DNA from: Patescibacteria group bacterium
GTDB taxonomy: Bacteria > Patescibacteriota > Microgenomatia > UBA8517
DNA: 64,000 nucleotides
Assembly: GCA_018823885.1 (NCBI GenBank)
Contig: JAHJHG010000001.1
Coordinates: 108,645 to 172,644 of the forward strand
Direction of reading: 5' to 3'
Position numbers and translations under genes: made by a program. Shown one piece after another: positions 11,360 to 60,782 of the stretch (position 1 is its first letter; each line of letters starts with the position of its first letter). The notes under the pieces were generated by a model. It did not search any database. It was given only the letters and a program-made list of their open reading frames with translations, and had not been told where the DNA came from.

Positions 11360-11494
11360 TTCGGGGTCCGAGTCCCATGTCTCTAATTTTGACAACCTAT
11401 CCTTCTTTAGATTGTCCCACGCAGCAACGATCACCAATAGAATATAAGCTAAGATAATCAGTGTCGATAAAACAAAGTCATTCGAAACAGGCAT
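11360..11494 (-). CDS. small membrane protein (45 aa, one TM helix)
   Basis: Manual translation gives MPVSNDFVLSTLIILAYILLVIVAAWDNLKKDRLSKLETWDSDPE. AAGGAGG Shine-Dalgarno 9 nt upstream. Its stop abuts the SD of the next small ORF. Confidence 0.4.
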
Positions 11495-11563
11495 GTTTAC
11501 ACTCCTCCTTTTATTATTAAAGAACGGCTTGGTGACCAGATTATACTTTTTTACTGGGAAATA

Positions 11564-12559
11564 TCAAAGAAGAGACACTATTGTTCTTGCAAGTTTACTC
11601 GAATCGTGCCTATAAAAAGTAGTCGTATCCATAAAATCTCCCGTAATTATTTTGACGTTTTGTTTTTTCTTACTTAAATCATCTATTACTGGTTTTGATC
11701 CGTACCTTTTATACCAATCGGCTATTCTGCTTTTAGTTTTGATTTTATTCCTATGGACTATCACATGGCTAATTTTCTCGGAGGCATCACCTAAATAATC
11801 CCTAATCACAGCCAAAAAATCACTTGCAGAAAAATCATCCGTTTCTCCTCTTTTCGTTAAGAGATTAACTACATAAACTAATTTTGCCTTTGACTTATAT
11901 AGAGCTTCGTTCATTCCTTGAACAAGAAGTGTTGGAACAATGCTTGTATATAGATCGCCGGGACCTAAAACAACTAAATCTGCTTTCTCAATAGCCTTGG
12001 CCGCTTTTTCAAAAATTTTGGCCTTTGGAGTTAAATATACCTTTTTTATCGGATATTTAAGCTTAAAATTTCGCATATCAATCTTGCTTTCGCCATAAAT
12101 ACGTGTACCGTCCGTTAATGTGGCCGCCAAATTCGATTTATCCAATGTTACGGGATAAACCGAACCGGAAAGATTAAATATTCTAGCTGCCTCATCGATA
12201 GCCCTATCCATACTACCTGTTATCTGCACCAAGGCGGCCAGTAAAATATTGCCCACTGAATGCCCCGCCAAACTTTTCCCATTCGTAAAGCGGAAATCAA
12301 ATACATCCTCAAGTGTTTTTCTCGCAAATGGAAGGTCTGAAAGGGCTAAAATTGCACGCCTAACATCGCCGGGGGGCAATATGTCTAGCTCTTTACGAAG
12401 TTTACCTGTTGAACCCCCCGAGTCGCACATGGAAATAACAGCAGATAACTCAAGTGGATACGTTTTAAGACCCGTAAGAACAGCATATGTTCCTGTACCT
12501 CCTCCTATCGCAACAACTTTTTTCTCCCTTCTTTCTTTCATTTTCTGTTTTTTGACCAT
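11564..12559 (-). CDS. YvcK/CofD-like family protein (gluconeogenesis factor / UPF0052)
   Basis: VVAIGGGTG...MCDSGGSTGKLR...PPGDVRRAILALS motifs. Confidence 0.75.
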   Translation of the reverse strand: MVKKQKMKERREKKVVAIGGGTGTYAVLTGLKTYPLELSAVISMCDSGGSTGKLRKELDILPPGDVRRAILALSDLPFARKTLEDVFDFRFTNGKSLAGHSVGNILLAALVQITGSMDRAIDEAARIFNLSGSVYPVTLDKSNLAATLTDGTRIYGESKIDMRNFKLKYPIKKVYLTPKAKIFEKAAKAIEKADLVVLGPGDLYTSIVPTLLVQGMNEALYKSKAKLVYVVNLLTKRGETDDFSASDFLAVIRDYLGDASEKISHVIVHRNKIKTKSRIADWYKRYGSKPVIDDLSKKKQNVKIITGDFMDTTTFYRHDSSKLARTIVSLL

Positions 12560-45771: not shown

Positions 45772-46677
45772 CTAAAGAGTGGACAAAAACTTAATAATTT
45801 CTCTTTCTACATTAAGTCCGGTGTCTTTTCTAACCGCTTCCCATCGAGGGGCAGAGTTCACTTCCAAAACAAAAAGTTCACCTGTTTTGTCAACCCTCAG
45901 CACGTCAACTCCTCCGATATCAATTTGCAAAGCCGATGCCGCTTTTATGGCCAGTTTTGCCTCATCTTCGGGAACTGGATTAAGTTGCTCACGTTTCCCC
46001 TCAGGAAATTCGCCATCTATTTTATCGATAAATCGCCTTCTCCAGCGGGTTGGGCGAGTAATTCCAGCTAACACCTTTCCCCCAACCACAAATATCCGAC
46101 TTCTTTGGGAAGATTCCGTAAATTCTTGAGCAATAAAATTCATTTTTTTCTTTTTTTGAAATTCCTGTAATTTCTCGTACAATTCATCTAATTCATTTTC
46201 ATTTCTCGGTGACCAAACCGCATGACCTTGCTTGCCAGTCGTTCCTTTTATTACGAAAGGGTATCCAAATATTTTTGGTGCCTTTTCTTTAATGTTGGCC
46301 AACTTACCAAAATAGGTTTTCGGTACTGGTATACCAGCTTCAATAAAGAGTTTCACTTCTACCGATTTGGGAATGGGGATGCGAATTAAATCTTCTCTTT
46401 CAAATACTCTGTCAACAACTCTCACTCCATGTTGTTTGCAGTGATTAACTAAAAGAGACACTTCTTCAAATCTCTTGCCAACAAGTCTTATATAAACAAC
46501 ACTAAAAGAAGCAATATCTTCACCCTTCACTTTTAAGATTGCTCTTCCCCCATCCGTTAAATATTCAAGATCAGAAAATGAAGCTGTTAGAAGTGGAACA
46601 TTAAGCTCTTTCGCTTCCTTAACAAATGGCTCTATGTGGCGAGTACCCCCGCCAACTATGACTAATATTTTGCTCAT
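45772..46677 (-). CDS. RimK-family ATP-grasp ligase (alpha-L-glutamate ligase-like)
   Basis: 301 aa, the same length class as RimK. ATP-grasp motifs (...FVIKGTTGKQGHAV..., ...GVDVLRVDKTGELFVLEVNSAP...). Confidence 0.7.
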   Translation of the reverse strand: MSKILVIVGGGTRHIEPFVKEAKELNVPLLTASFSDLEYLTDGGRAILKVKGEDIASFSVVYIRLVGKRFEEVSLLVNHCKQHGVRVVDRVFEREDLIRIPIPKSVEVKLFIEAGIPVPKTYFGKLANIKEKAPKIFGYPFVIKGTTGKQGHAVWSPRNENELDELYEKLQEFQKKKKMNFIAQEFTESSQRSRIFVVGGKVLAGITRPTRWRRRFIDKIDGEFPEGKREQLNPVPEDEAKLAIKAASALQIDIGGVDVLRVDKTGELFVLEVNSAPRWEAVRKDTGLNVEREIIKFLSTL

Positions 46678-47972
46678 TCTTCTTCCTTTACGGGATTCAC
46701 CAGAAACCCAGCCAGATCTCGCCTACCGACAATAAGTGGCCTCTTAAGCTTGCTTCTATCTGCTACACCAGCTGAGGTTTTAATTTTTTTACCCTTTAAC
46801 CAAAAAGTGACATTAATAATTGGTCTTCTCTGTTGACCAATAGAACTCCAAACTGTTTTTTGCCAAAGAATGTTGCTCTCTTCAAGCAATCCCATATCCT
46901 GAGCCAATGTTTTGTCTATCGAGCTTCGCCATGCACCAGTATCAATCTTTGACGGAACAGTCAGTCTTTTGCCATCTTTGCCTTTTATTTTTACTTCCTC
47001 AAAAATGTTAAGTGTTCTTATCCCTTCCTCAGCTCTTACTCTATCCGCAAAGGGTCCGGCAAAAAGAGATTTGGCGATAAGAACACCATGGTCGGCATCT
47101 TTTACTTTTAGATCTTCTACTCTTTCCAATCTCTTCCGCAAACCTGCTTGATTAGCAATTTGGATTTGCAAACCGGGTAGAAAATTAATCTCCAAAATCA
47201 TTGGTCCTTTTTCCGGATGAAGGACAATATCGACCCCCAAGTACCCCAACTCCGCTGTCTCTTGGCACATAACGGCCATCTTTAATATCTTTGTCCAATT
47301 GGGTATTTTTATTCCATGAAGCTTGCGTTTTGTCCCAGGTTTATAGGGAATATAATCCCCTTTCCACAAAGCTTTTGTTGTGATCCCTGTGGTGATGTCG
47401 ATACCAACAGCGATTGCTCCTTGATGCAAATTTGCTCTTCCACCCGATTCCTTAGTGGGAAGTCTTAACATGGCCATAACTGGAACTTTATTAAAAACAA
47501 TAATACGAACATCAGGAGTCCCTCTAAAAGCATACTTCTTAAAAGATTTATGCCGACCTACGTATTCTTCAAAAAATGCCATATCCGGCACATTTTGCAT
47601 ACTATACGCTCCTTCTAAAATATCAAATATATGAAGTTTTAAATCCTCAATGGTGACTTTCGTTCTACTTGTTGTGATCCAACCATCTCCATCTTTAGAT
47701 TTTTTCTTGACAACTATTATTCCCTCTCCACCTAAACCTTTGTTAGGCTTTAATGCAAACGAAGGCGGTAGACTATCCCAATCAAAATCGATAAGGTCTC
47801 GGGGATCTTTAAATCTGGCATAAGTATCGGGGACAGGAATATCTACCTTTCTTAACATCCTTTTTGTCCGAAGTTTTGAGTTGGCAATCTTTTTACCATG
47901 CACCGGGTTGTATGGGTACGAAAATAGTTGACTTCTGGCGTTAAGCCCTAAAATTGATGAAGTTTTAACCAT
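46674..47972 (-). CDS. ATP-grasp enzyme (alpha-L-glutamate ligase-related subfamily) fused to a C-terminal retropepsin-like (DTGA, RimB/Zn_protease-like) domain
   Basis: N-terminal KPNKGLGGEGIIVV and SGGRANLHQGA motifs. C-terminal ...KIDTGAWRSSID... and ...IVGRRDLAGFLVNP... are typical of the clan-AA aspartic-protease-like domain that accompanies RimK systems. Confidence 0.6.
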   Translation of the reverse strand: MVKTSSILGLNARSQLFSYPYNPVHGKKIANSKLRTKRMLRKVDIPVPDTYARFKDPRDLIDFDWDSLPPSFALKPNKGLGGEGIIVVKKKSKDGDGWITTSRTKVTIEDLKLHIFDILEGAYSMQNVPDMAFFEEYVGRHKSFKKYAFRGTPDVRIIVFNKVPVMAMLRLPTKESGGRANLHQGAIAVGIDITTGITTKALWKGDYIPYKPGTKRKLHGIKIPNWTKILKMAVMCQETAELGYLGVDIVLHPEKGPMILEINFLPGLQIQIANQAGLRKRLERVEDLKVKDADHGVLIAKSLFAGPFADRVRAEEGIRTLNIFEEVKIKGKDGKRLTVPSKIDTGAWRSSIDKTLAQDMGLLEESNILWQKTVWSSIGQQRRPIINVTFWLKGKKIKTSAGVADRSKLKRPLIVGRRDLAGFLVNPVKEEE

Positions 47973-47978
47973 AGCTTG

Positions 47979-48875
47979 TTAGTCACTGATAAGTCTCCTG
48001 AAACGCCAAAGTTCTATAAATCTTAGGCCAACATACTTACCTACCAGGTAATCTATAGCGATAACTATTAATAACAATATTTCCGGATTAAGTAAGGCGA
48101 ATTCTTGCATTGGTTTTAGAGTTAAAAGAACATAGGAGGCGAGAGATAATATTAACGTTTCTGTAGCTAAATTAATGGCTGTCTTTGCGCTTTTACCTGC
48201 CTGGACTCTACTAAAGTCTTCTGCCAAAAGAACCAAAACAAGAACCGGGAAAATGGAGACATTAGTTAAATCAGGGTGCTGAATAATTGGGGTTGTAAAA
48301 AGCACGCCCAATACCCCGATGGCAACAAACCAAAGTAATAGTGCCATTTTAGGAAGATATTGGAGCTTAATCTTAAGTTTTCTCAAAGCCATTCTCGCTG
48401 CAGTGGAGATTGCCACAATCACTAAGAACAGAACTATTCCTACAATCGGCCCCGTAGCCACAAACACAATTGACAAAGCAGCTGGAAGAAAAATTCCAAA
48501 ACCTCGAATTCCAAGTAAATGCCTCGCCGATGCTATGGCTGCAGCCACCATGGGAAGCAATAATAATAAAACAATCGTATTCGGCGGCACTCCAGCCCCT
48601 ACGGCTCCCCTTATGGCATATTTTATTGGATTTGTTGGCCAAACAGGACCAAGCTCTTGCTCCTCTAAAAGCTTCTCAAGAGGACCAATGGTTTCTTCGG
48701 TAGGTTGGGTCAAATCGGGCCTAGGAGACGGACTAGGTTCAGCCTCAAGCCCTGCTGAAGGACTTGCTGTACCGATGGGAGAAAGGCCTTGAGCAAATAT
48801 ATTGGTCACCACGGCAAAGCTTAAAGCTGCCGCGGCCATAAAACTGATAAGAATACTTGCCTTGCGCATTGTCAT
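47979..48875 (-). CDS. polytopic membrane protein, possibly the 7TM partner of ATP-grasp/transglutaminase-type systems
   Basis: 298 aa. N-terminal signal plus Pro-rich spacer, then about 6–7 hydrophobic helices judged by eye. No soluble domain. Confidence 0.45.
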   Translation of the reverse strand: MTMRKASILISFMAAAALSFAVVTNIFAQGLSPIGTASPSAGLEAEPSPSPRPDLTQPTEETIGPLEKLLEEQELGPVWPTNPIKYAIRGAVGAGVPPNTIVLLLLLPMVAAAIASARHLLGIRGFGIFLPAALSIVFVATGPIVGIVLFLVIVAISTAARMALRKLKIKLQYLPKMALLLWFVAIGVLGVLFTTPIIQHPDLTNVSIFPVLVLVLLAEDFSRVQAGKSAKTAINLATETLILSLASYVLLTLKPMQEFALLNPEILLLIVIAIDYLVGKYVGLRFIELWRFRRLISD

Positions 48876-49015: not shown

Positions 49016-50320
49016 ATGTCCAAAAAGCATCCTTATAAAGAAATTGTTCTTCCTAATAAACTTCGAGTTCTTCTCTATCCCATGGATTCCGTTATGTCTG
49101 TTTATGCTGTTGTATATGTTCGAGTCGGAGCTATTTATGAGAAACAAAAGGAAAGAGGGATCTCGCATTTTACTGAGCACATGCCCTTCTTGGGCACAAA
49201 AGCGTTGCCCACCCCCCTTTCTCTTTCTCAAGCAGCCGACGAGATCGGAGCAAAATACAATGGAATAACAGGAAGATTTAAAACCGAATACTTGATTAAA
49301 TTACCCTATACAAATATAGGTAAGGGGGTAGATTTTCTTTATAATTTTGTATTTGAACCCCTAAATATAGGCAAAGATATTGAAAAAGAAAAAAACGTTA
49401 TTCTCTCTGAATATAATGATTTTTGGCATAATCCTGATAAAAAATTTAATCATGAATTTTGGAGAAAAAGATTTAAACAAAAAGAGCATCCTTACAGCTA
49501 TCGTGCCCTCGGAATACCCAGAACAATTAAGGCTTTTGAAAAAAATGACATTCTTCACTGGAGAGAACAGTACTATAACCCTGCTAATATGATTCTCTCA
49601 ATTGCTGGAAATATAAACGAGAAACAGTTGATTGAAAAACTCAAAACCACTTTTGGCAAAGAAAAAGCAGGAACAAAGAGAAAAGAACCAAAGTTTGGTT
49701 CAAATGATTATTCTAACTTTTCTGTCTTTCTACAAAATGAGCCTAGGCCGCAAATTAGATTTTTCGTAACATTTCCCGCTTTCGGCTACAAACAAGTATC
49801 TCGACAAAAAGAATTGCAATTAGAATTATTAAAAGACATTCTTGGAGGAAGTCCCTCTTCCCGCTTATATCATCGACTAAGAAGAAAAGAAAGATTTGTA
49901 TATAGTGCTGGATGTAATATGAATATCTATCCTTGGATGGGTGCTTTTTATGTTTGGGGTTCCGTGCCAGCAGAAAAGCTCCTTCCTACTATGAAGTCTA
50001 CTAAGCAAGAAATAGACAAAGTATTAAAAACTGGTGTTACTGAAAAAGAGATAAATCTGTCTAGAAAATACATGGCGGCAGCAAGATTAATGCACTTCGA
50101 TAGCCCCGAATCTGTCGCTTACTATTTCGCTAATCAGGTTTTCGATGAAGACAAAATATGGTTTCCTGAAAGGTATATTAAAGAAGCAGAAAAGGTCACC
50201 AAGGAGGAATTGAATAATTTAGCAAAAAAGATTTTTGACTATTCAAAAGTAAATATCTCACTCCTCGGAAATGTTCCAGATAAAACTTTGAAAGCGGTTG
50301 AGGAAATTTTCAAAGTGTAA
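49016..50320 (+). CDS. M16-family (pitrilysin/insulinase-like) zinc peptidase
   Basis: Inverted zinc motif HFTEH (HxxEH) near the N-terminus, 434 aa. Promoter-like TTGACA-17-TACGAT upstream. Confidence 0.75.
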   Translation: MSKKHPYKEIVLPNKLRVLLYPMDSVMSVYAVVYVRVGAIYEKQKERGISHFTEHMPFLGTKALPTPLSLSQAADEIGAKYNGITGRFKTEYLIKLPYTNIGKGVDFLYNFVFEPLNIGKDIEKEKNVILSEYNDFWHNPDKKFNHEFWRKRFKQKEHPYSYRALGIPRTIKAFEKNDILHWREQYYNPANMILSIAGNINEKQLIEKLKTTFGKEKAGTKRKEPKFGSNDYSNFSVFLQNEPRPQIRFFVTFPAFGYKQVSRQKELQLELLKDILGGSPSSRLYHRLRRKERFVYSAGCNMNIYPWMGAFYVWGSVPAEKLLPTMKSTKQEIDKVLKTGVTEKEINLSRKYMAAARLMHFDSPESVAYYFANQVFDEDKIWFPERYIKEAEKVTKEELNNLAKKIFDYSKVNISLLGNVPDKTLKAVEEIFKV

Positions 50321-50378
50321 TTTTATGGAGCCACTTCTTTCCAATTTAGTCTTTTGAAGGTAAAGTCTCTTGGGAAGG
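50321..50378 (+). repeat. copy A of a ~55-nt direct repeat (TTTTATGGAGCCACTTCTTTCCAATTTAGTCTTTTGAAGGTAAAGTCTCTTGGGAAGG)
   Basis: Aligned by eye with the copies at 53163-53220 and 58609-58666, about 80-85% identity, same orientation. Starts right after the M16 peptidase stop codon. Confidence 0.7.
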
Positions 50379-50565
50379 TTAGCTTCTATGCTATAGATAT
50401 TTTCTCCAACCAGATTTACTTAAAATCTCTGGTATTGAACCTTTTCGGTTTTTTGGCCAATTATGAAGGGGTTGTTGAGCGGGATAACCTTTCTCTTCAG
50501 GGTTAGTAAAAACGGTTAGCGCTTCTTTAAAGGTCGAAAATTACCCCAACTGGTATACTTAGCCC

Positions 50566-51525
50566 ATGATAGGCAAAAACTACTTGGCGACAAAAAAGGA
50601 TTTGGAGGCGATAAACGAAGCTTTGCGCTTTGTGTGGCATCCAAAAATGAAGTTTGTCTTCCAAGAAAAATCAAAAATTGCTAATACGGCTGTAATCTCC
50701 TACGACAGCAAGTTTATATATATATGGACACAAAAAGAATTAAAGGGAATTGACAAAATGCAAAGTGGCCACCCCAAGTATTTGTTTTACAAAATACCTC
50801 ATGCCCTAGAACTCAAAGAGAGGTGGCAATATACATGGCATGCAGACTTGTGGAAAAACATGGAAAAATTCCTTCCTGATCAGATAAAAAGAGAGAATTT
50901 GTTTGATATACCAAGGATTGGTGGAGGATTACTCACACCCTTTGTTGAACTTCAGAAGAAGAGAGGGTTCAAATATAATCCATATGTTACTGGCGAATCG
51001 TATCTCGCCACCATCATACATGAGTTCGGACACAACTACTGGAACCAACACAAACTCTGGTGGTACTCAAACAAAGAAAAAAACATTGAGTATCTAACAG
51101 CTGCAAAAAACCTGTATCAAAAAGGGGGGGGAAATCCTAACATACCTTTGCATATACCAACAAAAAGCGAGGTCGGTGAACTATTCGCGTTTTGCACAGA
51201 ATACTATGCAAGCTCCATCTTTTGGCCAACCCATAGGCAAGCCCTTGACATTTTTGGTAAATATCGATTAAAGGAATTAATAAGGGAGGAAAAAGGGAAA
51301 AATCTAGATAAGCAAGATTCTGTCCTTGAGCCGTCAAAGAACTTACATGACTTTTCCCTTGTTTTCGGCAAAATCATATTCGAGTGCCACCCTAAAAAGT
51401 GGCCTAGTTTTCTAACAAGTCCTCCTTACTTAGGAAGTCATTATGGCCTTGGCGGTCCTGGAGGCGGTGATGGACGACTGGGATTACACGGCTGGGGAGG
51501 TTCCCCAGAAGGCAGGCATGACTGA
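50566..51525 (+). CDS. hypothetical HExxH zinc-metallopeptidase-like protein with a Gly-rich C-terminal tail
   Basis: IIHEFGHNYW motif. Extended -10 (TGGTATACT) 7 nt before the ATG suggests a leaderless start. The last 85 bp overlap a convergent small ORF. Confidence 0.5.
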   Translation: MIGKNYLATKKDLEAINEALRFVWHPKMKFVFQEKSKIANTAVISYDSKFIYIWTQKELKGIDKMQSGHPKYLFYKIPHALELKERWQYTWHADLWKNMEKFLPDQIKRENLFDIPRIGGGLLTPFVELQKKRGFKYNPYVTGESYLATIIHEFGHNYWNQHKLWWYSNKEKNIEYLTAAKNLYQKGGGNPNIPLHIPTKSEVGELFAFCTEYYASSIFWPTHRQALDIFGKYRLKELIREEKGKNLDKQDSVLEPSKNLHDFSLVFGKIIFECHPKKWPSFLTSPPYLGSHYGLGGPGGGDGRLGLHGWGGSPEGRHD

Positions 51526-51635
51526 GCAGCAACTTTATTAGTATCTAAAGTTACCAGTTCAATTGTAGGCTCCTTGGATATCTCGCCGTCAACTTCTCCC
51601 ACCTGCTTAGCAAACGATAGCATTTCTTTTTGCAT
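51441..51635 (-). CDS. small Pro/Cys-rich peptide (64 aa), a candidate RiPP precursor downstream of the radical-SAM/SPASM gene
   Basis: Strong SD (GAAAGGGGG) 8 nt upstream of an ATG. The track start is a GTG three codons earlier. The C-terminus CLPSGEPPQPCNPSRPSPPPGPPRP is core-like. It is antisense to the Gly-rich tail of the HExxH ORF, so the coding strand is ambiguous. Confidence 0.35.
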   Translation of the reverse strand: MQKEMLSFAKQVGEVDGEISKEPTIELVTLDTNKVAAQSCLPSGEPPQPCNPSRPSPPPGPPRP

Positions 51636-51674
51636 TGTTTTCACCCCCTTTCTTCAAATTTGTCTTATTACTTA

Positions 51675-53108
51675 TTAATATTCTATTGGATGTGCGACTT
51701 CAACTCCTTGAGTTGCCACTACTTTTTTTATAAACGGCTCTAAGGTTTCATCATAATAAGGCTTTCCCTCTCCGTTTAATCTCCAGGCCCCCTTTGCCCA
51801 CTCACCTCTATATGGATTGTATGTACATCTGGGATAAGGAGCAGAAAAATATTCACCCTGATTCTGATTAGCTCCTTCCGCAAGGGGTCGACAATCAAAA
51901 CAAGCATATCTATACTCACAGTCCTGACAAACCAATACATTATCTTTTGTATTTCTCCAAACAGTTTCGAGTTTTTGCCCTAAAACTATTTCTCTAAGAG
52001 CCACTTCCAAAGCATTACCGACTATTAAGTCTCTCGAAAAAATACATGGCAATACATTTCCATTATCAGTAATAGTTATTTTGCCTTGTAGACATGAATG
52101 TCCAGAAGTATTTCTAGAGAAAATATCTTTTGAGATTGTAAAATTTGGTGACATCATAAGGCTATATTTCACGATAGATTTCTTAGTTGGCATTATCGAT
52201 GGATTGTCTCCTCTTCCTTTTGGTCTCAAAACGTCTGGTTGCTTATGGGAAAACCCCATTTCTTCTACAAGTTCCTGAGTTTGCTTGATTGTCTGTTCAT
52301 TTGGACTCATTAATACCGTCTCAACTCTTACGGGCACACCAACTTCTTTTAGAAATTTTAAAGCTTCTATTGTTTTTCTGAAACTACCTGGGGTTTTTGT
52401 AATTGAATCATGTAGTTTTTCATCATTTGAATAAAGCGAAGTGGCAACATTTATACCAAGTGCTTTAATTCTTTGAATTTTTTTTGGCGTAAGCATTGTT
52501 GCATTCGTAAAAATTTCAATATATTCATATCCAACATTTTTAGAATATTCTGCAAGATCAAAAACTGTTTCTCCATTTTCTCCCTTATATAGAAGTGGCT
52601 CGCCACCAATAAACTGACATCTTCTACATCCCAAATAGTAAGATTCATCAATAAACTCTTTCCATTTCTCAAAGGAAACCCCCTTATTGTTTTCGAAACT
52701 CTGTTTGGAATGCAAGTTTCTTTCTTTTGAGATACCCATTGCTTTTTGGTACGTGGGTGGCATACATTCCGCATAGCAGTGAATACAACTTTCGTTGCAA
52801 TCATTTGAAACAATCTCGAACCACACAAATTGAAGAGAGGGGCTTCGCATAAGTTCTTGCAACATACTTCTTCGATTGCTTTTTTCCTGGGTTACTAAAT
52901 CCATGGTTTCAAGCTTTTTCCAAAACCCTAAATTTTTAGTTACACCAATCAAAATGTCGCAAGCCGAGTGGTTTATTGAATAAATTCTGGAGGAATTTAC
53001 ATCATAAATTGCTCCTCTTAGTACTCCAGGGACAAAGAAAACACCATCTTTAAATATATGCTCACCTGAGGATAAATGTTCTTTAATATCCAGGCCACGT
53101 TCTTTCAT
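51675..53108 (-). CDS. radical SAM enzyme with a C-terminal SPASM domain (peptide-maturase type)
   Basis: CNESCIHC (CxxxCxxC) cluster. The C-terminal Cys-rich region (...C.DCEYRYACFDC...C) is SPASM-like. The track start at 53186 is a TTG inside repeat B. The start was reassigned to the ATG at 53108, which is preceded by a perfect TTGACA-17-TATATT promoter at 53119-53147 on the minus strand. Confidence 0.8.
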   Translation of the reverse strand: MKERGLDIKEHLSSGEHIFKDGVFFVPGVLRGAIYDVNSSRIYSINHSACDILIGVTKNLGFWKKLETMDLVTQEKSNRRSMLQELMRSPSLQFVWFEIVSNDCNESCIHCYAECMPPTYQKAMGISKERNLHSKQSFENNKGVSFEKWKEFIDESYYLGCRRCQFIGGEPLLYKGENGETVFDLAEYSKNVGYEYIEIFTNATMLTPKKIQRIKALGINVATSLYSNDEKLHDSITKTPGSFRKTIEALKFLKEVGVPVRVETVLMSPNEQTIKQTQELVEEMGFSHKQPDVLRPKGRGDNPSIMPTKKSIVKYSLMMSPNFTISKDIFSRNTSGHSCLQGKITITDNGNVLPCIFSRDLIVGNALEVALREIVLGQKLETVWRNTKDNVLVCQDCEYRYACFDCRPLAEGANQNQGEYFSAPYPRCTYNPYRGEWAKGAWRLNGEGKPYYDETLEPFIKKVVATQGVEVAHPIEY

Positions 53109-53162
53109 GTTTGCACAGAATATAGGATAAAAACATAAAATTGTCAAATAATGAACACGCGC

Positions 53163-53220
53163 TTCTACGGAGCCACTTCTTTCCAATTTAGCCTCTTGAA
53201 GGTAAGATCTCTGGAGGAAG
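53163..53220 (+). repeat. copy B of the ~55-nt direct repeat
   Basis: CTACGGAGCCACTTCTTTCCAATTTAGCCTCTTGAAGGTAAGATCTCTGGAGGAAG. Lies between the rSAM promoter and the NUDIX gene stop. Confidence 0.7.
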
Positions 53221-53295
53221 AAAGGAAGGGGATATTGGATTTTTCCAGAAAGTGGTTATATACGAAGGTGTTCTTGATCCTTGTAAAAAATGCTT

Positions 53296-53757
53296 TTACT
53301 CTATCTCTTTAATGTATTCCCCCTCTTTAGGAAATCCGTTATTGAAATCTACCAATAACTTCGGAGACAATGTTTTTGGTAATAGATTGTCTGATAAATT
53401 ATCAATATCAAGCCAAGTCAACCAAACTGATCCGTCGGGGTGTTCCGGATCTTTTAAACCATCTAGTTTGTCAGTTTTGTTTATACTTCCCAAAATAAAT
53501 AATTCCACACTGTGTTCATTCTCATCAGGTCTAATAAAATCACGGATGTAGAGCATTTTCTGAAAATCAAACTTAACCTTATCTCCACATTCTTCCCTTA
53601 CTTCTCTTGCACAAGCATCCTCTACAGTTTCTCCATATTCCAAATGGCCTCCGATATAATGATAAAAATCACCCTTTTCTCTGTATTGAACAAGAACTTT
53701 CCTGTTATGGATTATTACCAACCTTACCCGAACGTTAATTATATTTTCAGTTTTCAT
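53296..53757 (-). CDS. NUDIX hydrolase
   Basis: Nudix box GGHLEYGETVEDACAREVREECG. Confidence 0.8.
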   Translation of the reverse strand: MKTENIINVRVRLVIIHNRKVLVQYREKGDFYHYIGGHLEYGETVEDACAREVREECGDKVKFDFQKMLYIRDFIRPDENEHSVELFILGSINKTDKLDGLKDPEHPDGSVWLTWLDIDNLSDNLLPKTLSPKLLVDFNNGFPKEGEYIKEIE

Positions 53758-53888
53758 TTATTTATAGTTATTATAAATCTTTTTGTGTTTGTTTTCATTC
53801 CTTTGAGTGCATCGTATTTTTTATAAACCTTTCTAATATCTTAAAGTTTTTTTATAATGTCTCTTTTGGAATGTTATAAATGTAAAAA

Positions 53889-55118
53889 TTAGTTAAATTC
53901 TAATCCCAACTCTCTCGCTTGTTTCAAATTAAAGTTTAATCTCTTAACCCATCTTTTAGAGGGACTAGAAAAAACACGTGTCGATTTAAAAATATTTGCC
54001 AACTTATATGAGTAGTTCTTATTCAAGAATTTCCCCTTTGCTGTATCAAAGCCGCATATTGCAATATTTTCTCTTAATTTTGAATTTGTCATAACCAACT
54101 CAATTTTACTAGCTAAATCTTCATAGTTTCCATGAGTATACAAAAAGCCATTTTTCTCATGTTTTATTATTTCCGAAACTCCGCCGCCATCGGCAGCAAT
54201 AACAGGTTTTTTGAATAACATCCCTTCTAAAATCGTTCTTCCAAAAGCTTCATTTTTTGAGCAAACAAGAACAGCGTCACATTGTTGAAACAACGGATAG
54301 GGATTTTCAATAAAATCTCTAACCTGAAAGCGCCATTTTTTCCCACTCTGATCAATCAAATTATGAATTTTTTTCATGAAAACGTCGTCAGTACACCTAC
54401 CAAGGATTAGCAATTCAACATCCAGTTTTCTGACTAGTAATAACGATGTTGCTCTAATAATATCCAGCTGTCCTTTTTTTTTAGAAATTGTTCCCGCTAT
54501 TAATAACTTAAAAGCGTTGGGGTAATTAAATGTGACCGGTAATTTTTTTATAAAAAGCTTTCTGTTAATTCTAATTGAGTTATAAACTACAGTAGATTTT
54601 GATCTTAAAATGTACTTACCAAATTCCTTCATTACAGCTTTAGAGTTAAATATAACCCTAGATGAAAAGTCATTAATAAATTTAGCAGTGAAAGCAAAGC
54701 CAAACTCGAATATAAAACCATGATCCTTCTCGCCTAATTCTCTAACATACCATATGTGAGGAACCCTTAACATATTGGCTACCAGTGCTCCTATGCAAAT
54801 CGTACTGGTGTTTGTTACCACCAAATCGGGGTGAAATTTCTCAATTTTGTTTTTCAGTCTCTTCGCACTATCTAAATGAGTATAAAAAAAGGTATTTACT
54901 GGTCTCCTGCTTTCTCCTCTGCGCACAGTCCACCACTTATATGGATGAATAATCCAATTTATTCTTGCTCTTGTAAGTTTGACGCCAAGTGCCCCATCAG
55001 ACGGAAGAACTACGCACAATCGCATCTTGGGAATTTTTTTTAGTGTTTCAAGCAAATAAAGCAAAGAACGCTCTGCACCTCCTAAATTGCTACTATGCGA
55101 AATAAAACAAATTTTCAT
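53889..55118 (-). CDS. glycosyltransferase family 4 (GT-B, GT1-type)
   Basis: MKICFISHSSNLGGAERSLL N-terminus. C-terminal E..G..ILE.M....PVIA motif region. Confidence 0.8.
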   Translation of the reverse strand: MKICFISHSSNLGGAERSLLYLLETLKKIPKMRLCVVLPSDGALGVKLTRARINWIIHPYKWWTVRRGESRRPVNTFFYTHLDSAKRLKNKIEKFHPDLVVTNTSTICIGALVANMLRVPHIWYVRELGEKDHGFIFEFGFAFTAKFINDFSSRVIFNSKAVMKEFGKYILRSKSTVVYNSIRINRKLFIKKLPVTFNYPNAFKLLIAGTISKKKGQLDIIRATSLLLVRKLDVELLILGRCTDDVFMKKIHNLIDQSGKKWRFQVRDFIENPYPLFQQCDAVLVCSKNEAFGRTILEGMLFKKPVIAADGGGVSEIIKHEKNGFLYTHGNYEDLASKIELVMTNSKLRENIAICGFDTAKGKFLNKNYSYKLANIFKSTRVFSSPSKRWVKRLNFNLKQARELGLEFN

Positions 55119-55123
55119 GTAAT

Positions 55124-56890
55124 TTAGAAAGTTTTTAGTTTTAAAAGTTTATTCATAGGTGTGTTTTTTTCGAAAAAATTAAACCATAAAACGATATCAA
55201 GGATGGTACTAATCCTATTTATTTTTAAATTCATTTTTGCATCGTTGATAATTTTTCTCTTCCTTAAAAAAGGTGGAAAATCTAAGCGATTTAATAAATC
55301 AAACAGATATCTCGCGTCATTTTTAGAGATTTCAGAATAGTCGCTTATTAACTCTCTTGGGTTTTCATTAAATTGCATAATTCTTTGGTCATAAGCTCTC
55401 AATTTCTCCAAATTTTCATCGCTTGTTGACCTAATTTGCTTAACTTCAGGAAATGCTGTGTCGATTATTCGTCTATAAATAAACTTAAATTTGTAATCAT
55501 GTTGAATGCTTAGGCCAAATGTAATTAGTTTGTCGTTGAAAAATGGCTGTATTACTGTTTTCAAACAACTTCCAATAATATTACTAGGTGTTATGCTGAT
55601 TCCATTTCTAATTCGGTTTTTCATTAGAAAAACTACCATTCGATTTTCAGTCGTAGGTATATTATTCAATTCATCAACGACCCAGTCTTCTTTGTATTTA
55701 ATACTCTTCCAAACCTCAGGGTTTAAATAATCTTCGAGCCAAGAATATTCAAATCCAAACTGCTTTCTAAAAAGTTTAGCTAGATAGCGTGAATTCGCTT
55801 TCATTTGAATATGTATTGGGCGCACTCGAGTAGAGCGCATTATTATGTCTCCTCCAATACCATCAATATAAGTATCATATTTTTTGATCGTTTCCAGCAT
55901 CGGCATCGTCCATAAATGTTCTTGCACTAAACAGTCGCTCAAGTAAGCTTTCATAACAAAAAAACGTTCGTAAATATCGGCAGGTCTATCAATATAAATA
56001 CTATTTATCCCCAAAGCATTAGATAGTTCGCATACAATGTCTTTCTCTGAACCGCAAGGATGGAGTGTGGTTATCGTGTCAAAATCAGATTGGTTAGAAA
56101 ACTTTTTGAGACCAGCCACAATACACCGGGAATCATACCCTCCAGAGAGAGCAGTTATCGATTTCGATCCTTCAATGGTTTTTCCCAAATCACTAAAAAC
56201 CTTTCTAAATATTTCTACACCCTCTGAGGTTTTTTGTTCGTAGCTGGAGTTATAATCAATATCAATTTGCGAAAAATCCCAATACTTTTCCTGTCTAACA
56301 CTAATAGCATCTCTGTAGGATATCTTAACTAAAGTTCCATTTGATATTAAGCGAATATCTTTGTAAAAAGTTTCTTCACCTAACGTAAATCTAAAAGTTA
56401 AATATTCCCCCCACGCTTTCCAGTTTATGGGTGGTTTCCTATCTAATAAAGGTATTAGCAACTTTACTTCAGATCCGAAGGCAAAACCATCAGCACATCT
56501 GCATACGAAAAGGGGTCGAGAACCATATTTGTCAGTTATTATAAAAATTAGTTGTTTTTTCTTATCTATTAATAAAAGATTAAAGGATCCATTAATCTTT
56601 TTGACAAAATTAATAGAATGTTTTTTGTTATACAAGCTTATTATGTGACTTGCAGTTTTTTCTGCTTTAGGCTTATCAAAAAGATTTCCTTGAAAAACAA
56701 CAATCAAATTTTCGTCTTCAGCTATACAATCATCAATTGGGGCCAAACCACAGACTGATATTTTATAATTATTATCTTTAAAATATCTAAGATTTTTGTA
56801 ATAACTTTCAACACCTGCTGGAAGTATTCCTGTAAAACTCAAGTTGTTTCGTGATAAGTTTTTGCCTATCCTTCCAAAGATTTTAAGCAT
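55124..56890 (-). CDS. asparagine synthetase-like amidotransferase (AsnB family) lacking the N-terminal Cys nucleophile
   Basis: PP-loop SGGYDSR and the AsnB synthetase domain are present. The N-terminus is MLKIFG rather than MCG. Confidence 0.75.
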   Translation of the reverse strand: MLKIFGRIGKNLSRNNLSFTGILPAGVESYYKNLRYFKDNNYKISVCGLAPIDDCIAEDENLIVVFQGNLFDKPKAEKTASHIISLYNKKHSINFVKKINGSFNLLLIDKKKQLIFIITDKYGSRPLFVCRCADGFAFGSEVKLLIPLLDRKPPINWKAWGEYLTFRFTLGEETFYKDIRLISNGTLVKISYRDAISVRQEKYWDFSQIDIDYNSSYEQKTSEGVEIFRKVFSDLGKTIEGSKSITALSGGYDSRCIVAGLKKFSNQSDFDTITTLHPCGSEKDIVCELSNALGINSIYIDRPADIYERFFVMKAYLSDCLVQEHLWTMPMLETIKKYDTYIDGIGGDIIMRSTRVRPIHIQMKANSRYLAKLFRKQFGFEYSWLEDYLNPEVWKSIKYKEDWVVDELNNIPTTENRMVVFLMKNRIRNGISITPSNIIGSCLKTVIQPFFNDKLITFGLSIQHDYKFKFIYRRIIDTAFPEVKQIRSTSDENLEKLRAYDQRIMQFNENPRELISDYSEISKNDARYLFDLLNRLDFPPFLRKRKIINDAKMNLKINRISTILDIVLWFNFFEKNTPMNKLLKLKTF

Positions 56891-56922
56891 AATGTATAAT
56901 ATTTTACCAGAGTTTATAATTT

Positions 56923-57825
56923 ATGACATCTTATTCATTTATAATCCCATCATTCAACTCGGCCAAGGATCTCATGACGTGTGTTAGGAGTCTAAACAGT
57001 TTAAAATACAATAAGCGTAAATATGAAATTATTATTGTAGATGATGGTTCAACAGACCAATCGACTTCGCAAATAAAAAGACTCAACATAGCCAACCTAA
57101 AGATTTATAAGAACCCAAAACAAGGTGCTGCTGCTGCCCGGAATTATGGCATAGAAAAAGCAAAGAAAAACATCCTTATATTTCTAGACCAGGATGTATC
57201 AGTTAAAGAAAATTTGCTTAACATATATGATAGTGCTTTAAAGATTACTGGTGCAGATGCGGTGCAAGGTAATATTTGGAAGCAACTAATAAATACTGAG
57301 CTAACGAAGACACATGCAACGTGGAGAAAGATAGTATTTATAAACAAAGTTAACGATCATGATGGATTTATAAAAACTATTGTTACCAGGAATGTAGCCA
57401 TAAAGAAGGAGGTTTTAAATAAAATACTACGAAAAGATGGTTATATTTTTGACGAGAAATTTAAAGGTACTGGTGGCGAAGACCGCGAACTAGGATATAG
57501 AATTAATAAGCTTGGATTTAATATTTATCTTGAGCCCCAAGCCATCGTAAAACACAAAGACCCTGACAAGTTATTGGGTATCCTTATCCAAAAATATAAA
57601 CACGCACGGGGCGATGTAAAATTGGGGATTGGAGAAAAGTTTTACGACATATCTAACTTTAAGAGGGTTGTCATAAATCCGTTGGGAAGTGGAGTTCCTC
57701 TATATTTTTCATTTCTTATCTGGTGCTTTCATATAGCTGGTTGCGAAATCGAAAGAGCTAAGCAAAAACTTATCATAATTTCAAACGGTATTTTTTCCAG
57801 AAATCATAGCCCAAGGGGTTTTTAA
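56923..57825 (+). CDS. glycosyltransferase family 2
   Basis: FIIPSFNSAKDL...EIIIVDDGSTD and a DxD-containing core. Confidence 0.75.
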   Translation: MTSYSFIIPSFNSAKDLMTCVRSLNSLKYNKRKYEIIIVDDGSTDQSTSQIKRLNIANLKIYKNPKQGAAAARNYGIEKAKKNILIFLDQDVSVKENLLNIYDSALKITGADAVQGNIWKQLINTELTKTHATWRKIVFINKVNDHDGFIKTIVTRNVAIKKEVLNKILRKDGYIFDEKFKGTGGEDRELGYRINKLGFNIYLEPQAIVKHKDPDKLLGILIQKYKHARGDVKLGIGEKFYDISNFKRVVINPLGSGVPLYFSFLIWCFHIAGCEIERAKQKLIIISNGIFSRNHSPRGF

Positions 57826-58419
57826 CAAAATTAGCAAGTCAAGAAACAGGGATTTTTTCCCCGCATAATATGCGTCCAATTCTATTCTTTTGTCGAAATC
57901 CACACTACTTCTTCCCGATACTTGCCAATATCCTGTAATACCTGGTTTGACGGATAAAACATTTTTCAGCAATTTCTTTTTCTCGGGAAACTTTCTAAAC
58001 TGTTGCCCAAGCTCTTCAGGATAATATGGTCTAGGTCCGACAATGCTCATTTCACCCTTCAAAACATTCAACAGCTGTGGAATTTCGTCGATTGAGTGTT
58101 TCCTTATAAACCTACCGACTGGAGTCACTCTTGGATCGTTATAGAGCTTGTAACCAGATTTTGTATATTCTTTATGGAGATTCTTGAAACGAGGGTCTGT
58201 TTTTAAAAGTTCATGAGCATTTACTATCATTGACCTAAATTTATATGGAAAAAAAGCTCTATTGCTCTTCCCTACTCGCTTTGGTGTATTGGCAAAAATT
58301 GGGCCATGGGTTGTTAGTTTAATTAATAATGCGGTGATTAGTATAACAGGGGAAAAAAATATCAGTAGAAAAATAGCCCCAACAATATCTATTGATCTTT
58401 TTAATATCTTATAAATCAT
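57781..58419 (-). CDS. small phosphoglycosyl transferase (bacterial sugar transferase family, PglC/WbaP C-terminal-domain type)
   Basis: Single N-terminal TM helix followed by ...YKFRSM..., DE.PQL.NVL.G.MS.VGPRP motifs. Confidence 0.8.
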   Translation of the reverse strand: MIYKILKRSIDIVGAIFLLIFFSPVILITALLIKLTTHGPIFANTPKRVGKSNRAFFPYKFRSMIVNAHELLKTDPRFKNLHKEYTKSGYKLYNDPRVTPVGRFIRKHSIDEIPQLLNVLKGEMSIVGPRPYYPEELGQQFRKFPEKKKLLKNVLSVKPGITGYWQVSGRSSVDFDKRIELDAYYAGKKSLFLDLLILLKTPWAMISGKNTV

Positions 58420-58461
58420 ATAATAAATTCTACATTAAGAAAGCAGGTCAAAGCTAGTATA

Positions 58462-58608
58462 ATGCAAATAATGAAAGCGGCAATATATAATCCGTATTTA
58501 GACACCTTGGGTGGTGGCGAGCGCTATACGGTGGCAGTTGCTACAACCTTGAAAAAGAACGGTTATTTAGTCGATACTGAATGGAAAGATTCTTCAATAA
58601 AAAGTCTA
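58462..58608 (+). pseudogene. 5' fragment (about 48 codons) of a GT-B glycosyltransferase gene, truncated at repeat copy C
   Basis: The N-terminus MQIMKAAIYNPYLDTLGGGERYTVAVATTLKKNGYLVD looks like a glycosyltransferase start. Recognisable sequence stops where the repeat begins, and the remaining ORF is repeat-derived or antisense sequence. Confidence 0.5.
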
Positions 58609-58666
58609 TTTTATGGAGCCACTTCTTTCCACCTTAACCTTTTGAAGGTGAGGTCTCTGGGGAAAG
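58609..58666 (+). repeat. copy C of the ~55-nt direct repeat
   Basis: TTTTATGGAGCCACTTCTTTCCACCTTAACCTTTTGAAGGTGAGGTCTCTGGGGAAAG. Coincides with the glycosyltransferase truncation point and with the stop of the 723-aa minus-strand gene. Confidence 0.7.
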
Positions 58667-60782
58667 TTAAAACAAAGTCTGGAGCAAATTCGAAAACTTC
58701 CGCCGGCTCATCAGCATTATCACCCAATAGATCTCTCTCTAAGACTACCCCGCCATATGCAGCCACCATTCCTCTAACATGTAATTGGTTACTTCCCGCT
58801 CCTGTTCTGAATTGGCCTTCTGACAAAAATACTCCCTCTATTTCTACCGCAACTGGGTGAGAAACATTTGCATCAATAGAGATATTTCCTTTGTTTCCAC
58901 TATCGTCCTTGCCCACAATAAACATTATGAATCCTGTGCCATCAACAACATTAATTCTGTCATTGATATATAAATCTGCATTTTCCACTAAAACAACCAC
59001 TTTTCTAGTTCCTGGCATATTTATACTATTACTTATTGTTAAATCGCCCCAAGTATTGCCGTCAAAGTGATACCAAACATAACCCCTTGAAGGTGCTCCT
59101 CCCGAAGTAAAGAATCCTCCATTGACAGAAGCTTGTTCAATCTCTGTTAAGCTTACTTCAACATCTGAACGTACCATTTTTCTAAAGAAATTGTAGTCAT
59201 ATATTTTACTAAACAAGCTCTGAGTATTAGCAAGCCAGCCAGTTGAAGAAACACCTCCTTCTCCAAAATTTGCAGTAGAGCCACCATAAATAGGAACACC
59301 AGGATAACCGCCAAGTCCCTCTAAACCAAAGAGTGGGTTGCACCCAGGCAAGGCACAACTTGAAGGAATTGAAGAAATTATATCCCCACTTGTAATAACA
59401 TCCGCGTCTATCACCTGCCACCATGGACCGGGGGCAGTAACATTAAGAATAGCCGTATCAGTACATCTCTGTGCACCACCCATTATTACATTTGAAGTAA
59501 TTGTTGAACTACCAACAGCAAGTGTTTCCCCAACTGTTTGGTATGGTTGGGTGGTATCTGATGCCGGATTTACGGTTGATACGGCGGTATTGCTCGAAGA
59601 AAAATTCACCTGACCTACAATACCAGCTCCAATTGTAACCGTAGCTATATAATTCGCGTTTGTACCTATAGCCACACTTACAGTAGAAGGGTCTAAGCTA
59701 GCTGTGCATGAAGGGGTGGGGGTAGGTGTTGCTGCACATGCAGCGTCATCAACACACCTTGACTCAGCAGCACACCCAGGAGGAGAACATGTGCGCGTTT
59801 GTAATCTTTCATTACTAGGACAAGAACCCCCTCCACATGCACCATTTACCCAACTACCACAACCACACGTCCAATAGCAGCTTCCATATCTGGTCTCACA
59901 AGTATCAATTCCACAACCGGGAGCATAGCAGGACGTGCCACTAACTCTGCATTCTCTATTAAAAGCCCAAACACAATCTTTTACATAAACACATGTTCCA
60001 AGACACTCCCACCTTTTTAGAAAGATATCATAATAACAATTACAATCTGCTCCATATGTGCTACAGCCCGATCCGTTTGAACTACACTCAAGCCACCATT
60101 CGTTAACAAAACACTGCGTTCCCGTTCCCGTACATGATTGAGCCATCACCGTTTTTATGGGCCTAAACTTCCCTATAAAAAGAGCGGTCTTTTTTTTACC
60201 TAATTCAATAAATTCAAATTTATTATTAACTACTTCCTGCTGAATCTTTATTAACTCCTCTGATAGCTTATCTGGTTCTAAATCTCCGTTCGAAATTATG
60301 AACAGCCCCTCAACAAAATAGGAACTCACTATCGTATTAACACTTGCACCTCCTCCGCTCAACTCAGAAAGTTTGGGATTTATATAAAGAAAAAGTTCAT
60401 ATGTCTCGCTATCCTCATCATACGCTCCCCAAAAACCTCTTAATACCGTCCTTTCACCGCCATCAGTAGGCGTAACTATTTTGAGGACGGGCTGCTCTTC
60501 ATTTGTTAAGATAATTTTTATCTTTTCAGTGAAGTTTATTTGTTTGTCTTCAAAATTCATTACCCCACTTGCCATAATTCTATCTAGTATCCCTTTTTCC
60601 AATAAATATGTTTCTAGGGCTTCTTTGTCTTTAATTCGAAGTTCTAAATTGTCCTGCTGTGATTGAGTTTTAATGTATATGTTGCCTATTTTCTGACTTT
60701 TGTTGGCTCTATAAAGAAGAGTAATTTCAACAACCACGACAGCAAGAAGAATAAATAATATAATATAGAGCAGTTTTCTCAC
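58611..60782 (-). CDS. large secreted/surface protein with an extremely Cys-rich module
   Basis: 723 aa. Signal anchor (LLYIILFILLAVVVV). About 35 Cys within roughly 150 residues (...CTGTGTQCFVNEWWLECSSNGSGCSTYGADCNCYY...CGCGSWVNGACGGGSCP...), then a PTPTPS linker and Gly/Ser/Thr-rich repeats. Confidence 0.55.
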   Translation of the reverse strand: MRKLLYIILFILLAVVVVEITLLYRANKSQKIGNIYIKTQSQQDNLELRIKDKEALETYLLEKGILDRIMASGVMNFEDKQINFTEKIKIILTNEEQPVLKIVTPTDGGERTVLRGFWGAYDEDSETYELFLYINPKLSELSGGGASVNTIVSSYFVEGLFIISNGDLEPDKLSEELIKIQQEVVNNKFEFIELGKKKTALFIGKFRPIKTVMAQSCTGTGTQCFVNEWWLECSSNGSGCSTYGADCNCYYDIFLKRWECLGTCVYVKDCVWAFNRECRVSGTSCYAPGCGIDTCETRYGSCYWTCGCGSWVNGACGGGSCPSNERLQTRTCSPPGCAAESRCVDDAACAATPTPTPSCTASLDPSTVSVAIGTNANYIATVTIGAGIVGQVNFSSSNTAVSTVNPASDTTQPYQTVGETLAVGSSTITSNVIMGGAQRCTDTAILNVTAPGPWWQVIDADVITSGDIISSIPSSCALPGCNPLFGLEGLGGYPGVPIYGGSTANFGEGGVSSTGWLANTQSLFSKIYDYNFFRKMVRSDVEVSLTEIEQASVNGGFFTSGGAPSRGYVWYHFDGNTWGDLTISNSINMPGTRKVVVLVENADLYINDRINVVDGTGFIMFIVGKDDSGNKGNISIDANVSHPVAVEIEGVFLSEGQFRTGAGSNQLHVRGMVAAYGGVVLERDLLGDNADEPAEVFEFAPDFVLTFPRDLTFKRLRWKEVAP

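Follow-up and report, generated by a model that had tools for sequence, protein, structure and literature searches.

A glycosyltransferase gene remnant and copies of a conserved gene end at the borders of accessory DNA in a Patescibacteria genome

A 64-kb stretch of Patescibacteria DNA (hereafter the window) carries a locus where the 3' end of a gene behaves as a hot spot for insertions, and which does not qualify as an integrase island, an integron or a polymorphic-toxin array. The gene concerned, here called geneX, runs convergently toward the 5' remnant of a glycosyltransferase gene (the GT stub), and copies of its last codons recur farther along the window. On balance, we interpret the stub as a dead gene start that marks where a laterally acquired block of sugar-modification genes borders on geneX, a conserved surface-protein gene, behind which the block may have come to lie by an anchored insertion. 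Taken alone, the stub is an ordinary dead pseudogene remnant that marks a join of foreign DNA, and the recurrent insertion site is of more interest. The features of the locus are as follows.

58611..60782, minus strand: geneX, encoding a 723-aa membrane-anchored Cys-rich protein (homologue search, AF2 model).
58611..58669, minus strand: copy C, the functional last 19 codons and stop of geneX (repeat comparison, geneX reading frame).
58471..58602, plus strand: GT stub, the surviving 5' part of a GT4/GT-B glycosyltransferase gene, encoding residues 1-44 (N-terminal homology; remainder not found).
58435..58483, both strands: divergent promoter-like sites (consensus matches only; 3 found versus 1.6 expected).
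53223..58610, unstranded: block 1, 5.4 kb with a GC content of 31-35%, absent at the site in relatives.
57781-58419, minus strand: Bac_transf gene of block 1, next after the GT stub (gene family match).
56923-57825, plus strand: GT2 gene of block 1 (gene family match).
55124-56890, minus strand: AsnB-like amidotransferase gene of block 1 (gene family match).
53889-55118, minus strand: GT4 gene of block 1, distinct from the GT stub (gene family match).
53296-53757, minus strand: Nudix gene of block 1 (gene family match).
53165..~53222, minus strand: copy B, an orphan geneX 3' end (SSRDLTFKRLNWKEVAP and stop), between the Nudix and radical SAM genes.
50382..53164, unstranded: block 2, 2.8 kb, between copies B and A.
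51675-53108, minus strand: radical SAM/SPASM gene of block 2, with TTGACA-17-TATATT just after copy B.
50566-51525, plus strand: gene of block 2 for a 319-aa HExxH protein (ORF, motif).
50323..50381, minus strand: copy A, an orphan geneX 3' end (KLTFPRDFTFKRLNWKEVAP and stop), 2 nt from the convergent M16 peptidase stop.
49016..50320, plus strand: M16 peptidase gene, an ancestral geneX neighbour (C-terminal remnant in L004).
45772..48875, minus strand: 7TM_transglut, ATPgrasp_ST and RimK genes, which lie directly behind geneX in relatives and define the empty site.

A truncated glycosyltransferase gene beside the end of geneX

The stub lies within a mechanical open reading frame at 58462-58860 of the plus strand that begins MQIMKAAIYNPYLDTLGGGERYTVAVATTLKKNGYLVDTEWKDSSIK; homologues start at the second ATG (58471), not at 58462. 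With the first 69 residues of this frame as the query, 26 database proteins were matched at E values from 4e-15 to 8e-8. Most are contig-end partials from Microgenomates and Nealsonbacteria, and all 26 start M[KR]AAIYNPYLDTLGGGERY...VD.EWKD.SIK and continue xKLExRFGIDL..INFV.DIKRGDGYD.CFWVSDGSIP. Searching species-representative genomes with a profile of the GT N-terminal family gave 283 tblastn-confirmed loci with 61-86% identity over residues 1-44. Among the best 80 of these 283 loci, mostly from Woesebacteria, intact genes encode 327-352 aa in 76 cases; the few shorter genes are cut by contig ends, and one gene encodes 381 aa. The closest locus (L012, 86% identity over residues 1-44) is an intact homologue with Pfam Glycos_transf_1 (PF00534) at residues 149-322. 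Many of the metagenome-assembled genomes (MAGs) with the Woesebacteria-type GT (L012-L091) are titled ‘uncultured Gammaproteobacteria bacterium’ (binchicken, SRP co-assemblies), and look mislabeled judging by their gene content.

The stub retains one GT4/GT-B feature, a Rossmann-type N-terminal start with the glycine-rich loop DTLGGGERY. Compared with the Woesebacteria/Microgenomates GT4 (Glycos_transf_1) enzymes that begin MKAAIYNPYLDTLGGGERY, it keeps 44 of ~340 residues (13% of the protein) and lacks ~290 residues, including the whole catalytic C-domain. The family match ends at K47 of the open reading frame (58600-58602), and a DNA alignment with four intact genes agrees with a truncated family N-terminus. 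After K47 the frame reads SLFYGATSFHLNLLKV..., which is the antisense of geneX, and this extension of the mechanical frame is spurious. Alignments that reach residue ~70 do so at ~20% identity, the level of chance.

The remainder of the gene was sought widely. No PF00534 catalytic domain occurs in the fragment or in any of the six frames of the window, and tblastn with 80 full-length GTs detected no trace of residues 45-340 in the window; their other matches there are of a generic kind and fall on the distinct GT4 gene (53889-55118). The remainder is likewise missing from a further 4.4 kb of the contig past the window, as searched by tblastn against L006 (GCA_018815075.1 contig JAHIYB010000005.1). 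Because the catalytic domain is absent, the stub is a pseudogene remnant rather than a functional family member. A preliminary description of this DNA had recognized a GT-B N-terminus of about 48 codons, ending at a repeat copy and with the rest of the gene missing, and the database matches, the genomic loci and the tblastn searches bear this out. The same description had allowed for a full-length gene recoverable by frameshift correction. No frameshift restores the gene, and such a rescue is impossible because the DNA downstream is the coding end of another gene. Its term ‘decapitated’ is a misnomer, since the head is the part that survives.

That other gene is geneX, whose stop codon occupies 58611-58613. 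Its conserved C-terminal domain of ~300 aa ends WKEVAP immediately before the stop, and relatives have an Ig-like region. GeneX has no Pfam, NCBIfam or PHROG match. Its last 296 residues, used as a query, retrieved 76 Patescibacteria homologues. Of these, 74 have a full end, and every one of the 74 closes with W[KRQ]E[VI]xP, nearly always WKEVAP; the conserved terminus follows the pattern ...FPRDLTFKRLxWKEVAP, stop codon included. An AF2 model of the C-terminal domain (pLDDT 80) is beta-solenoid-like; its matches (ice-binding DUF3494 proteins, adhesins and the competence pilin ComZ) are all weak, and no fold was assigned. Elsewhere, geneX sits among type IV pilus genes with PilM-like proteins and prepilin-type N-termini (L114 12048-14241; L129 2-1724 and 6649-7289; L116 267-1210). 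The protein has 723 aa here versus 484-494 aa in its closest relatives (for example L001 5068-6552); the ~230 additional residues are N-terminal, and only residues 359-723 align with these relatives. Sliding identity against six relatives gave no clear mosaic breakpoint.

Many Patescibacteria proteins that are otherwise unrelated to one another, often large and Cys-rich and of secreted appearance, also have WKEVAP at their extreme C-terminus (window 58611-58631; L098, L100, L104, L105, L125, L133, L137, L141, L149 and others). This tail contains no transmembrane segment and has no match among Pfam or NCBIfam models; a role as a tag for sorting or processing, so far undescribed, is possible. 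Neither the WKEVAP motif nor the insertion site is described in the literature searched.

Three direct repeat copies were aligned, at 50308-50378 (A), 53150-53220 (B) and 58596-58666 (C). By blastn, C and A are 87% identical over 62 nt, C and B 87% over 46 nt, and A and B 95% over 37 nt; 17 nt are identical in all three. One minus-strand frame runs through every copy and reads FPRDFTFKRLNWKEVAP in A, SSRDLTFKRLNWKEVAP in B and FPRDLTFKRLRWKEVAP in C, each followed by a stop. Since the 74 full-ended homologues all end in this way and copy C is the geneX C-terminus, the repeat consists of the final ~57-60 nt of geneX, stop codon included, and is not a mobile-element repeat. Copy C is the working geneX end; only A and B are orphans. 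Copy A has a stop 14 codons upstream, and copy B sits between the Nudix and radical SAM genes, which are 187 nt apart. Both identifications, of the fragment as a truncated GT and of the repeat as the end of geneX, are almost certain.

The differences among the copies are those of a coding sequence. Third codon positions account for 8 of the 13 sites that vary among the three (P = 0.035), TAA and TAG alternate, and an N/R difference is also polymorphic among functional orthologues; copy A has one orphan-specific amino-acid change (L>F) and copy B has two (F>S and P>S). Between any two copies, 7-9 of the last 51 nt are different, versus 3-6 between a copy and an orthologue from another species (C-L147 3, C-L004 5, B-L001 5, A-L001 6), and copy B matches the geneX end of L001 at 43 of 44 positions. 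From these comparisons, the copies look like different alleles of a functional gene end and not like sequences that were recently duplicated on the spot and then decayed neutrally. Copies A and C possibly remain similar for ~10 nt past the stop, to 58600. We considered an in situ duplication of a target spanning -60 to +12, and rejected it as a reading of this similarity, which in AT-rich DNA is indistinguishable from a chance match.

At the joint, about 0-8 nt separate the GT homology from the repeat, and there is a possible microhomology, AAAGT (58600-58604). The preliminary description had taken the repeat as the mark of a rearrangement or insertion breakpoint, with the stub as direct evidence. 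What holds of this is that copies of the repeat border inserted DNA; the repeat itself is a gene end, and the copy at the stub is functional. The stub reveals one illegitimate junction, not that the repeat caused the break.

The 8.2-kb region between the gene-end copies

Five related genomes (L001, L003, L004, L005 and L126) were compared with the window. GeneX is 76-84% identical at the protein level in the four relatives measured, L126 holding its last codons only, and the identity of the neighbouring ribosomal and ATP-grasp genes is 80-98%. In L001, L003, L005 and L126, geneX is directly followed by 7TM_transglut, ATPgrasp_ST and RimK and then by the L12/L10/L1/L11 genes, an order that corresponds to the window from 48875 down to 40119. 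L004 has in addition a convergent M16 C-terminal remnant (88% nucleotide identity) between geneX and 7TM_transglut, and M16 is an old neighbour of geneX because this remnant occupies the same place. The 8.2 kb that separate copy C from copy A here are missing in the relatives, and window positions 50382-58610 are therefore an insert relative to them. That this segment is an insert bounded by geneX-end copies is very likely. Repeated loss in the relatives, through recombination between direct copies, fits the data as well as gain in the present lineage. The preliminary description had also proposed that the sugar-modification locus was remodeled, and the sugar genes around the site do differ between relatives.

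In gene orientation the order is geneX (copy C), block 1, copy B, block 2, copy A, M16 and 7TM_transglut, such that each block is closed by a copy of the last ~57 nt of geneX. The stub is the first item past the geneX stop, and thus forms the geneX-side edge of block 1, whose low GC content compares with 38-43% around it. The genes of blocks 1 and 2 either belong to other families or have no family assignment, none being a recombinase, integrase or excisionase, and the only PHROG match in the blocks is a generic one to Nudix.

Orthologues of the block 1 Bac_transf (70-75% identity; L092-L094) reside elsewhere in a conserved ManC - Bac_transf - DUF4012 - RecO context, and therefore block 1 is itself a mosaic of glycan-locus pieces. 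A donor-like locus would have this Bac_transf or other block 1 genes near the GT, and no such neighbour occurs at any of the 80 GT loci. The 276-aa gene that faces Bac_transf in L003 and a 221-aa gene in L006 were considered and are not GTs. Two distant Bac_transf paralogues occur within 8 kb (window 57781-58419; L006 2390-3028).

Promoter-like sites flank the start of the stub. On the plus strand TTAAGA-17-TATAAT (58435-58463) precedes it, and on the minus strand TTGCCG-16-TATACT (58483-58456) lies inside its first codons and is directed at Bac_transf. Judging from these consensus matches, overlap with a candidate promoter of the adjacent sugar-transferase operon may be a reason for the persistence of the stub.

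Pieces of a peptide-maturation set surround geneX. Upstream are ScmC-like and PqqD genes (L006 2980-4084, just beyond window position 64000); downstream are the radical SAM/SPASM gene (51675-53108), which has weak ScmF and grasp-with-SPASM matches, and the HExxH protein and M16 peptidase genes (49016-51525). In one population (JGI 3300014656; L010 15275-16234) the 319-aa HExxH gene is split into ORFs of 125 and 158 aa, which suggests decay of this block 2 cassette gene. We also asked whether the HExxH protein and a cassette peptidase of L129 represent a shared cassette, and they have no detectable relationship. At the site in L004, a small cassette with ORFs of 36 and 56 aa (11477-11845) extends from the geneX stop to the M16 remnant and has no orphan copy. 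Its 56-aa ORF, the stop of which overlaps the M16 stop, resembles a 92-aa coiled-coil cassette gene of L116 and L139.

Gene-end arrays in other Patescibacteria

An exact-pattern scan of JGI metagenomes for TGGAAAGAAGTNGCTCCNTAR returned 61 stretches. Many are ordinary gene ends from several unrelated, often Cys-rich families that have only the WKEVAP terminus in common. At least about 15 of the 61 are orphans with extended similarity to geneX-type ends, and these form arrays. The succession of gene end, cassette and orphan end is seen in L114, L122, L138, L139, L129, L116, L095 and L136, of which the following are examples.

L138: gene end, Phd/RelE-like pair with a small zinc-ribbon ORF, orphan, RHH/RelE-like pair, orphan.
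L122: orphan, HicB/HicA-like pair, orphan, DUF6922 and AbiEii, orphan.
L114: geneX, DUF6922 and AbiEii, orphan, C39-like peptidase, orphan.
L139 and L116: BrnT/CopG and the 92-aa coiled-coil gene.
L129: MA-type peptidase, fused in frame to the orphan.

Cassettes in these genomes are often toxin-antitoxin systems (AbiEii, BrnT/CopG, HicAB-like, RelE/Phd-like) with promoter-like sites of their own. The orphans measure 21-66 nt, and their similarity always ends with the stop codon itself. Most of them are followed within ~10-40 nt by a promoter-like element (a TTGACA-type -35 and/or a TATAAT-type -10). The AbiE cassettes of L114 and L122 are 75% identical over 924 nt and occupy an equivalent position in two lineages, starting 0-14 nt past the preceding stop and ending at an orphan, and the geneX types of the two differ. 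None of the arrays examined contains a recombinase, and one orphan (L127) adjoins an IS3 transposase. A scan of IMG/VR for a phage-borne copy of the site gave one chance-like match and no attP-like copy on viral contigs.

Some cassette genes read in frame into an orphan and so acquire a WKEVAP ending (L114 5918-6553, L129 5981-6652, L139 ~130-246). The AbiEii toxin of L114 runs into its orphan, whereas the L122 homologue stops 12 nt before the orphan. These fusions look like accidents of small deletions.

Arrays of this kind invite comparison with known systems. Phage 21 and the e14 element insert in the icd gene of E. coli, and islands insert in tRNA and tmRNA genes, in each case carrying a replacement 3' end; the icd copies differ largely by synonymous changes. 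With such insertions the geneX locus shares an intact target, border direct repeats made of its 3' end, a displaced copy beside the old flank, copies that differ largely silently and inserts that accumulate in tandem. It differs from them in having no integrase, a variable repeat length, cassettes as small as 0.6 kb and no free element found. Integrons and CALINs (attC clusters without an integrase) likewise present arrays of small cassettes, often toxin-antitoxin systems, at a fixed position with a repeated site after each cassette. In contrast to these, the site here is the coding end of a gene and has no attC-like hairpin, the cassettes have promoters of their own, and no IntI was seen among the genes that flank the arrays.

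Rhs and CdiA polymorphic-toxin loci also consist of a main gene followed by orphan fragments that repeat a conserved piece and are able to recombine. Their repeated piece precedes an alternative C-terminal module in frame, whereas every copy here holds the extreme C-terminus and the stop; for this reason, recombination between geneX-end copies could only delete or move cassettes and would leave the protein unchanged. Finally, in homology-facilitated illegitimate recombination during natural transformation, incoming DNA is joined through one short conserved anchor and one illegitimate joint, and no dedicated recombinase takes part. The combination of a conserved-anchor border with an illegitimate, gene-truncating joint is common to that process and to the geneX locus. 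Its classical outcome involves no duplication of the anchor, and a circular intermediate or an array-bearing donor would be needed here.

Explanations and meaning of the locus

If the insertion was anchored by homology, incoming DNA would have recombined within the highly conserved WKEVAP-coding end, which is the most conserved nucleotide stretch of geneX. Two routes can be envisaged. A circular cassette with one gene-end copy could have entered by a Campbell-type single crossover, or a double crossover could have occurred with a donor that already had the arrangement of gene end, cassette and orphan end. Either route would duplicate the gene end, keep geneX intact and permit variable repeat lengths, and the other joint of block 1 would be illegitimate, cutting the GT after codon 44. 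Variable repeat length and allele-like divergence of the copies lend indirect support to cassette insertion of this homology-anchored (RecA-type) kind. We infer this mechanism, and regard it as about evenly poised between right and wrong. Points against this explanation are that both blocks and the other arrays lack a visible recombinase, that geneX has no clear mosaic breakpoint, that the L004 cassette has no orphan end, so that duplication is not obligatory, that low GC content is common in glycan loci whatever their origin, and that the 80 GT loci include no possible donor in which this Bac_transf adjoins an intact GT.

Blocks 1 and 2 could instead be decayed integrative elements that entered the geneX 3' end by means of an integrase, each with a replacement end, and that later lost the integrase and most of the GT. 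This would account for direct repeats made from the 3' end of the target, for tandem accretion, for the empty site in relatives, for the largely synonymous differences among copies and for a pattern that returns at this one gene across many lineages. We consider it unlikely nevertheless, as every block and array examined is devoid of integrase and excisionase, orphans of 21-66 nt define no single crossover point, viral contigs offer no attP-like copy, and cassettes of 600-1000 bp are too small for autonomy. An equally improbable history separates the truncation from the repeat: an ordinary deletion in a resident island would have removed the GT body and the DNA up to geneX, with selection for an intact geneX fixing the left end. 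There is only one observable junction, its possible AAAGT microhomology is typical of illegitimate deletion, and the cassette of L004 abuts neighbour genes without an orphan end, all of which suit a deletion. It would have had to end within ~0-10 nt of the geneX stop, however; orphan copies mark both remaining borders of the blocks, and cassettes in other genomes also begin 0-40 nt past the stop.

Much less credible is a functional non-coding role for the repeat, as a terminator, small RNA or attC-like folded site, with its overlap of the geneX end a matter of chance. The high nucleotide conservation, with 17 nt common to the three copies, and a short inverted match between the FP and WK codons (TTTCC...GGAAA) are the grounds for it. 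The folding energy is no better than that of shuffled sequences on either strand (z -0.66 to +1.47), there is no Rfam match or terminator-like site, short orphans lack the inverted match, and the sequence encodes a conserved protein C-terminus in 74 homologues with variation of the codon type. That the junction is an assembly chimera is scarcely conceivable, even though repeats stand at the junctions and the source genomes are metagenome-assembled. At least six assemblies of different sample origin share the gene order and the junction: three are NCBI MAGs, two are Logan assemblies and one is a JGI contig. L006, the one for which single bases were compared, has 0 mismatches to the window over the shared 16.2 kb, and the copies, at 82-87% identity, are too diverged to mislead an assembler. 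Because the junction recurs in at least six independent assemblies, it is real and not an assembly artefact.

Beyond the homology-anchored insertion that we prefer, a bolder interpretation is that the WKEVAP-coding end of geneX is a dedicated docking site, a cassette platform that operates without an integrase or with a recombinase supplied in trans; this we hold to be conceivable and somewhat doubtful. With similar reserve, self-promoted cassettes (toxin-antitoxin, peptidase, glycan and peptide-maturase) might be pictured as stacked behind a pilus-associated surface-protein gene. It is no less tentative to suppose that each cassette is closed by a gene-end copy and that lineages swap cassettes through these copies.

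Genomic islands are common in Patescibacteria, though these bacteria have few classical mobile elements (PMC12455944). The geneX locus is a clear, sequence-defined example of the gain and stacking of accessory genes in ultra-small, uncultivated members of this group. A recurrent site marked by gene-end copies makes a systematic search possible and would help to delimit islands in MAGs. It could also serve to test whether plain homologous recombination after DNA uptake suffices to move cassettes. Furthermore, knowledge of the site would help to correct mis-annotation, both of starts called inside orphan copies and of ORFs fused to WKEVAP. ORFs that begin at TTG inside orphans B and A, in another frame (MERSGS...), occur at 53108-53186 and 50258-50344 of the window. 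Because mechanical ORFs start at TTG inside the orphan copies, annotations of the radical SAM gene disagree, giving 477 aa in L006 versus 503 aa in L007.
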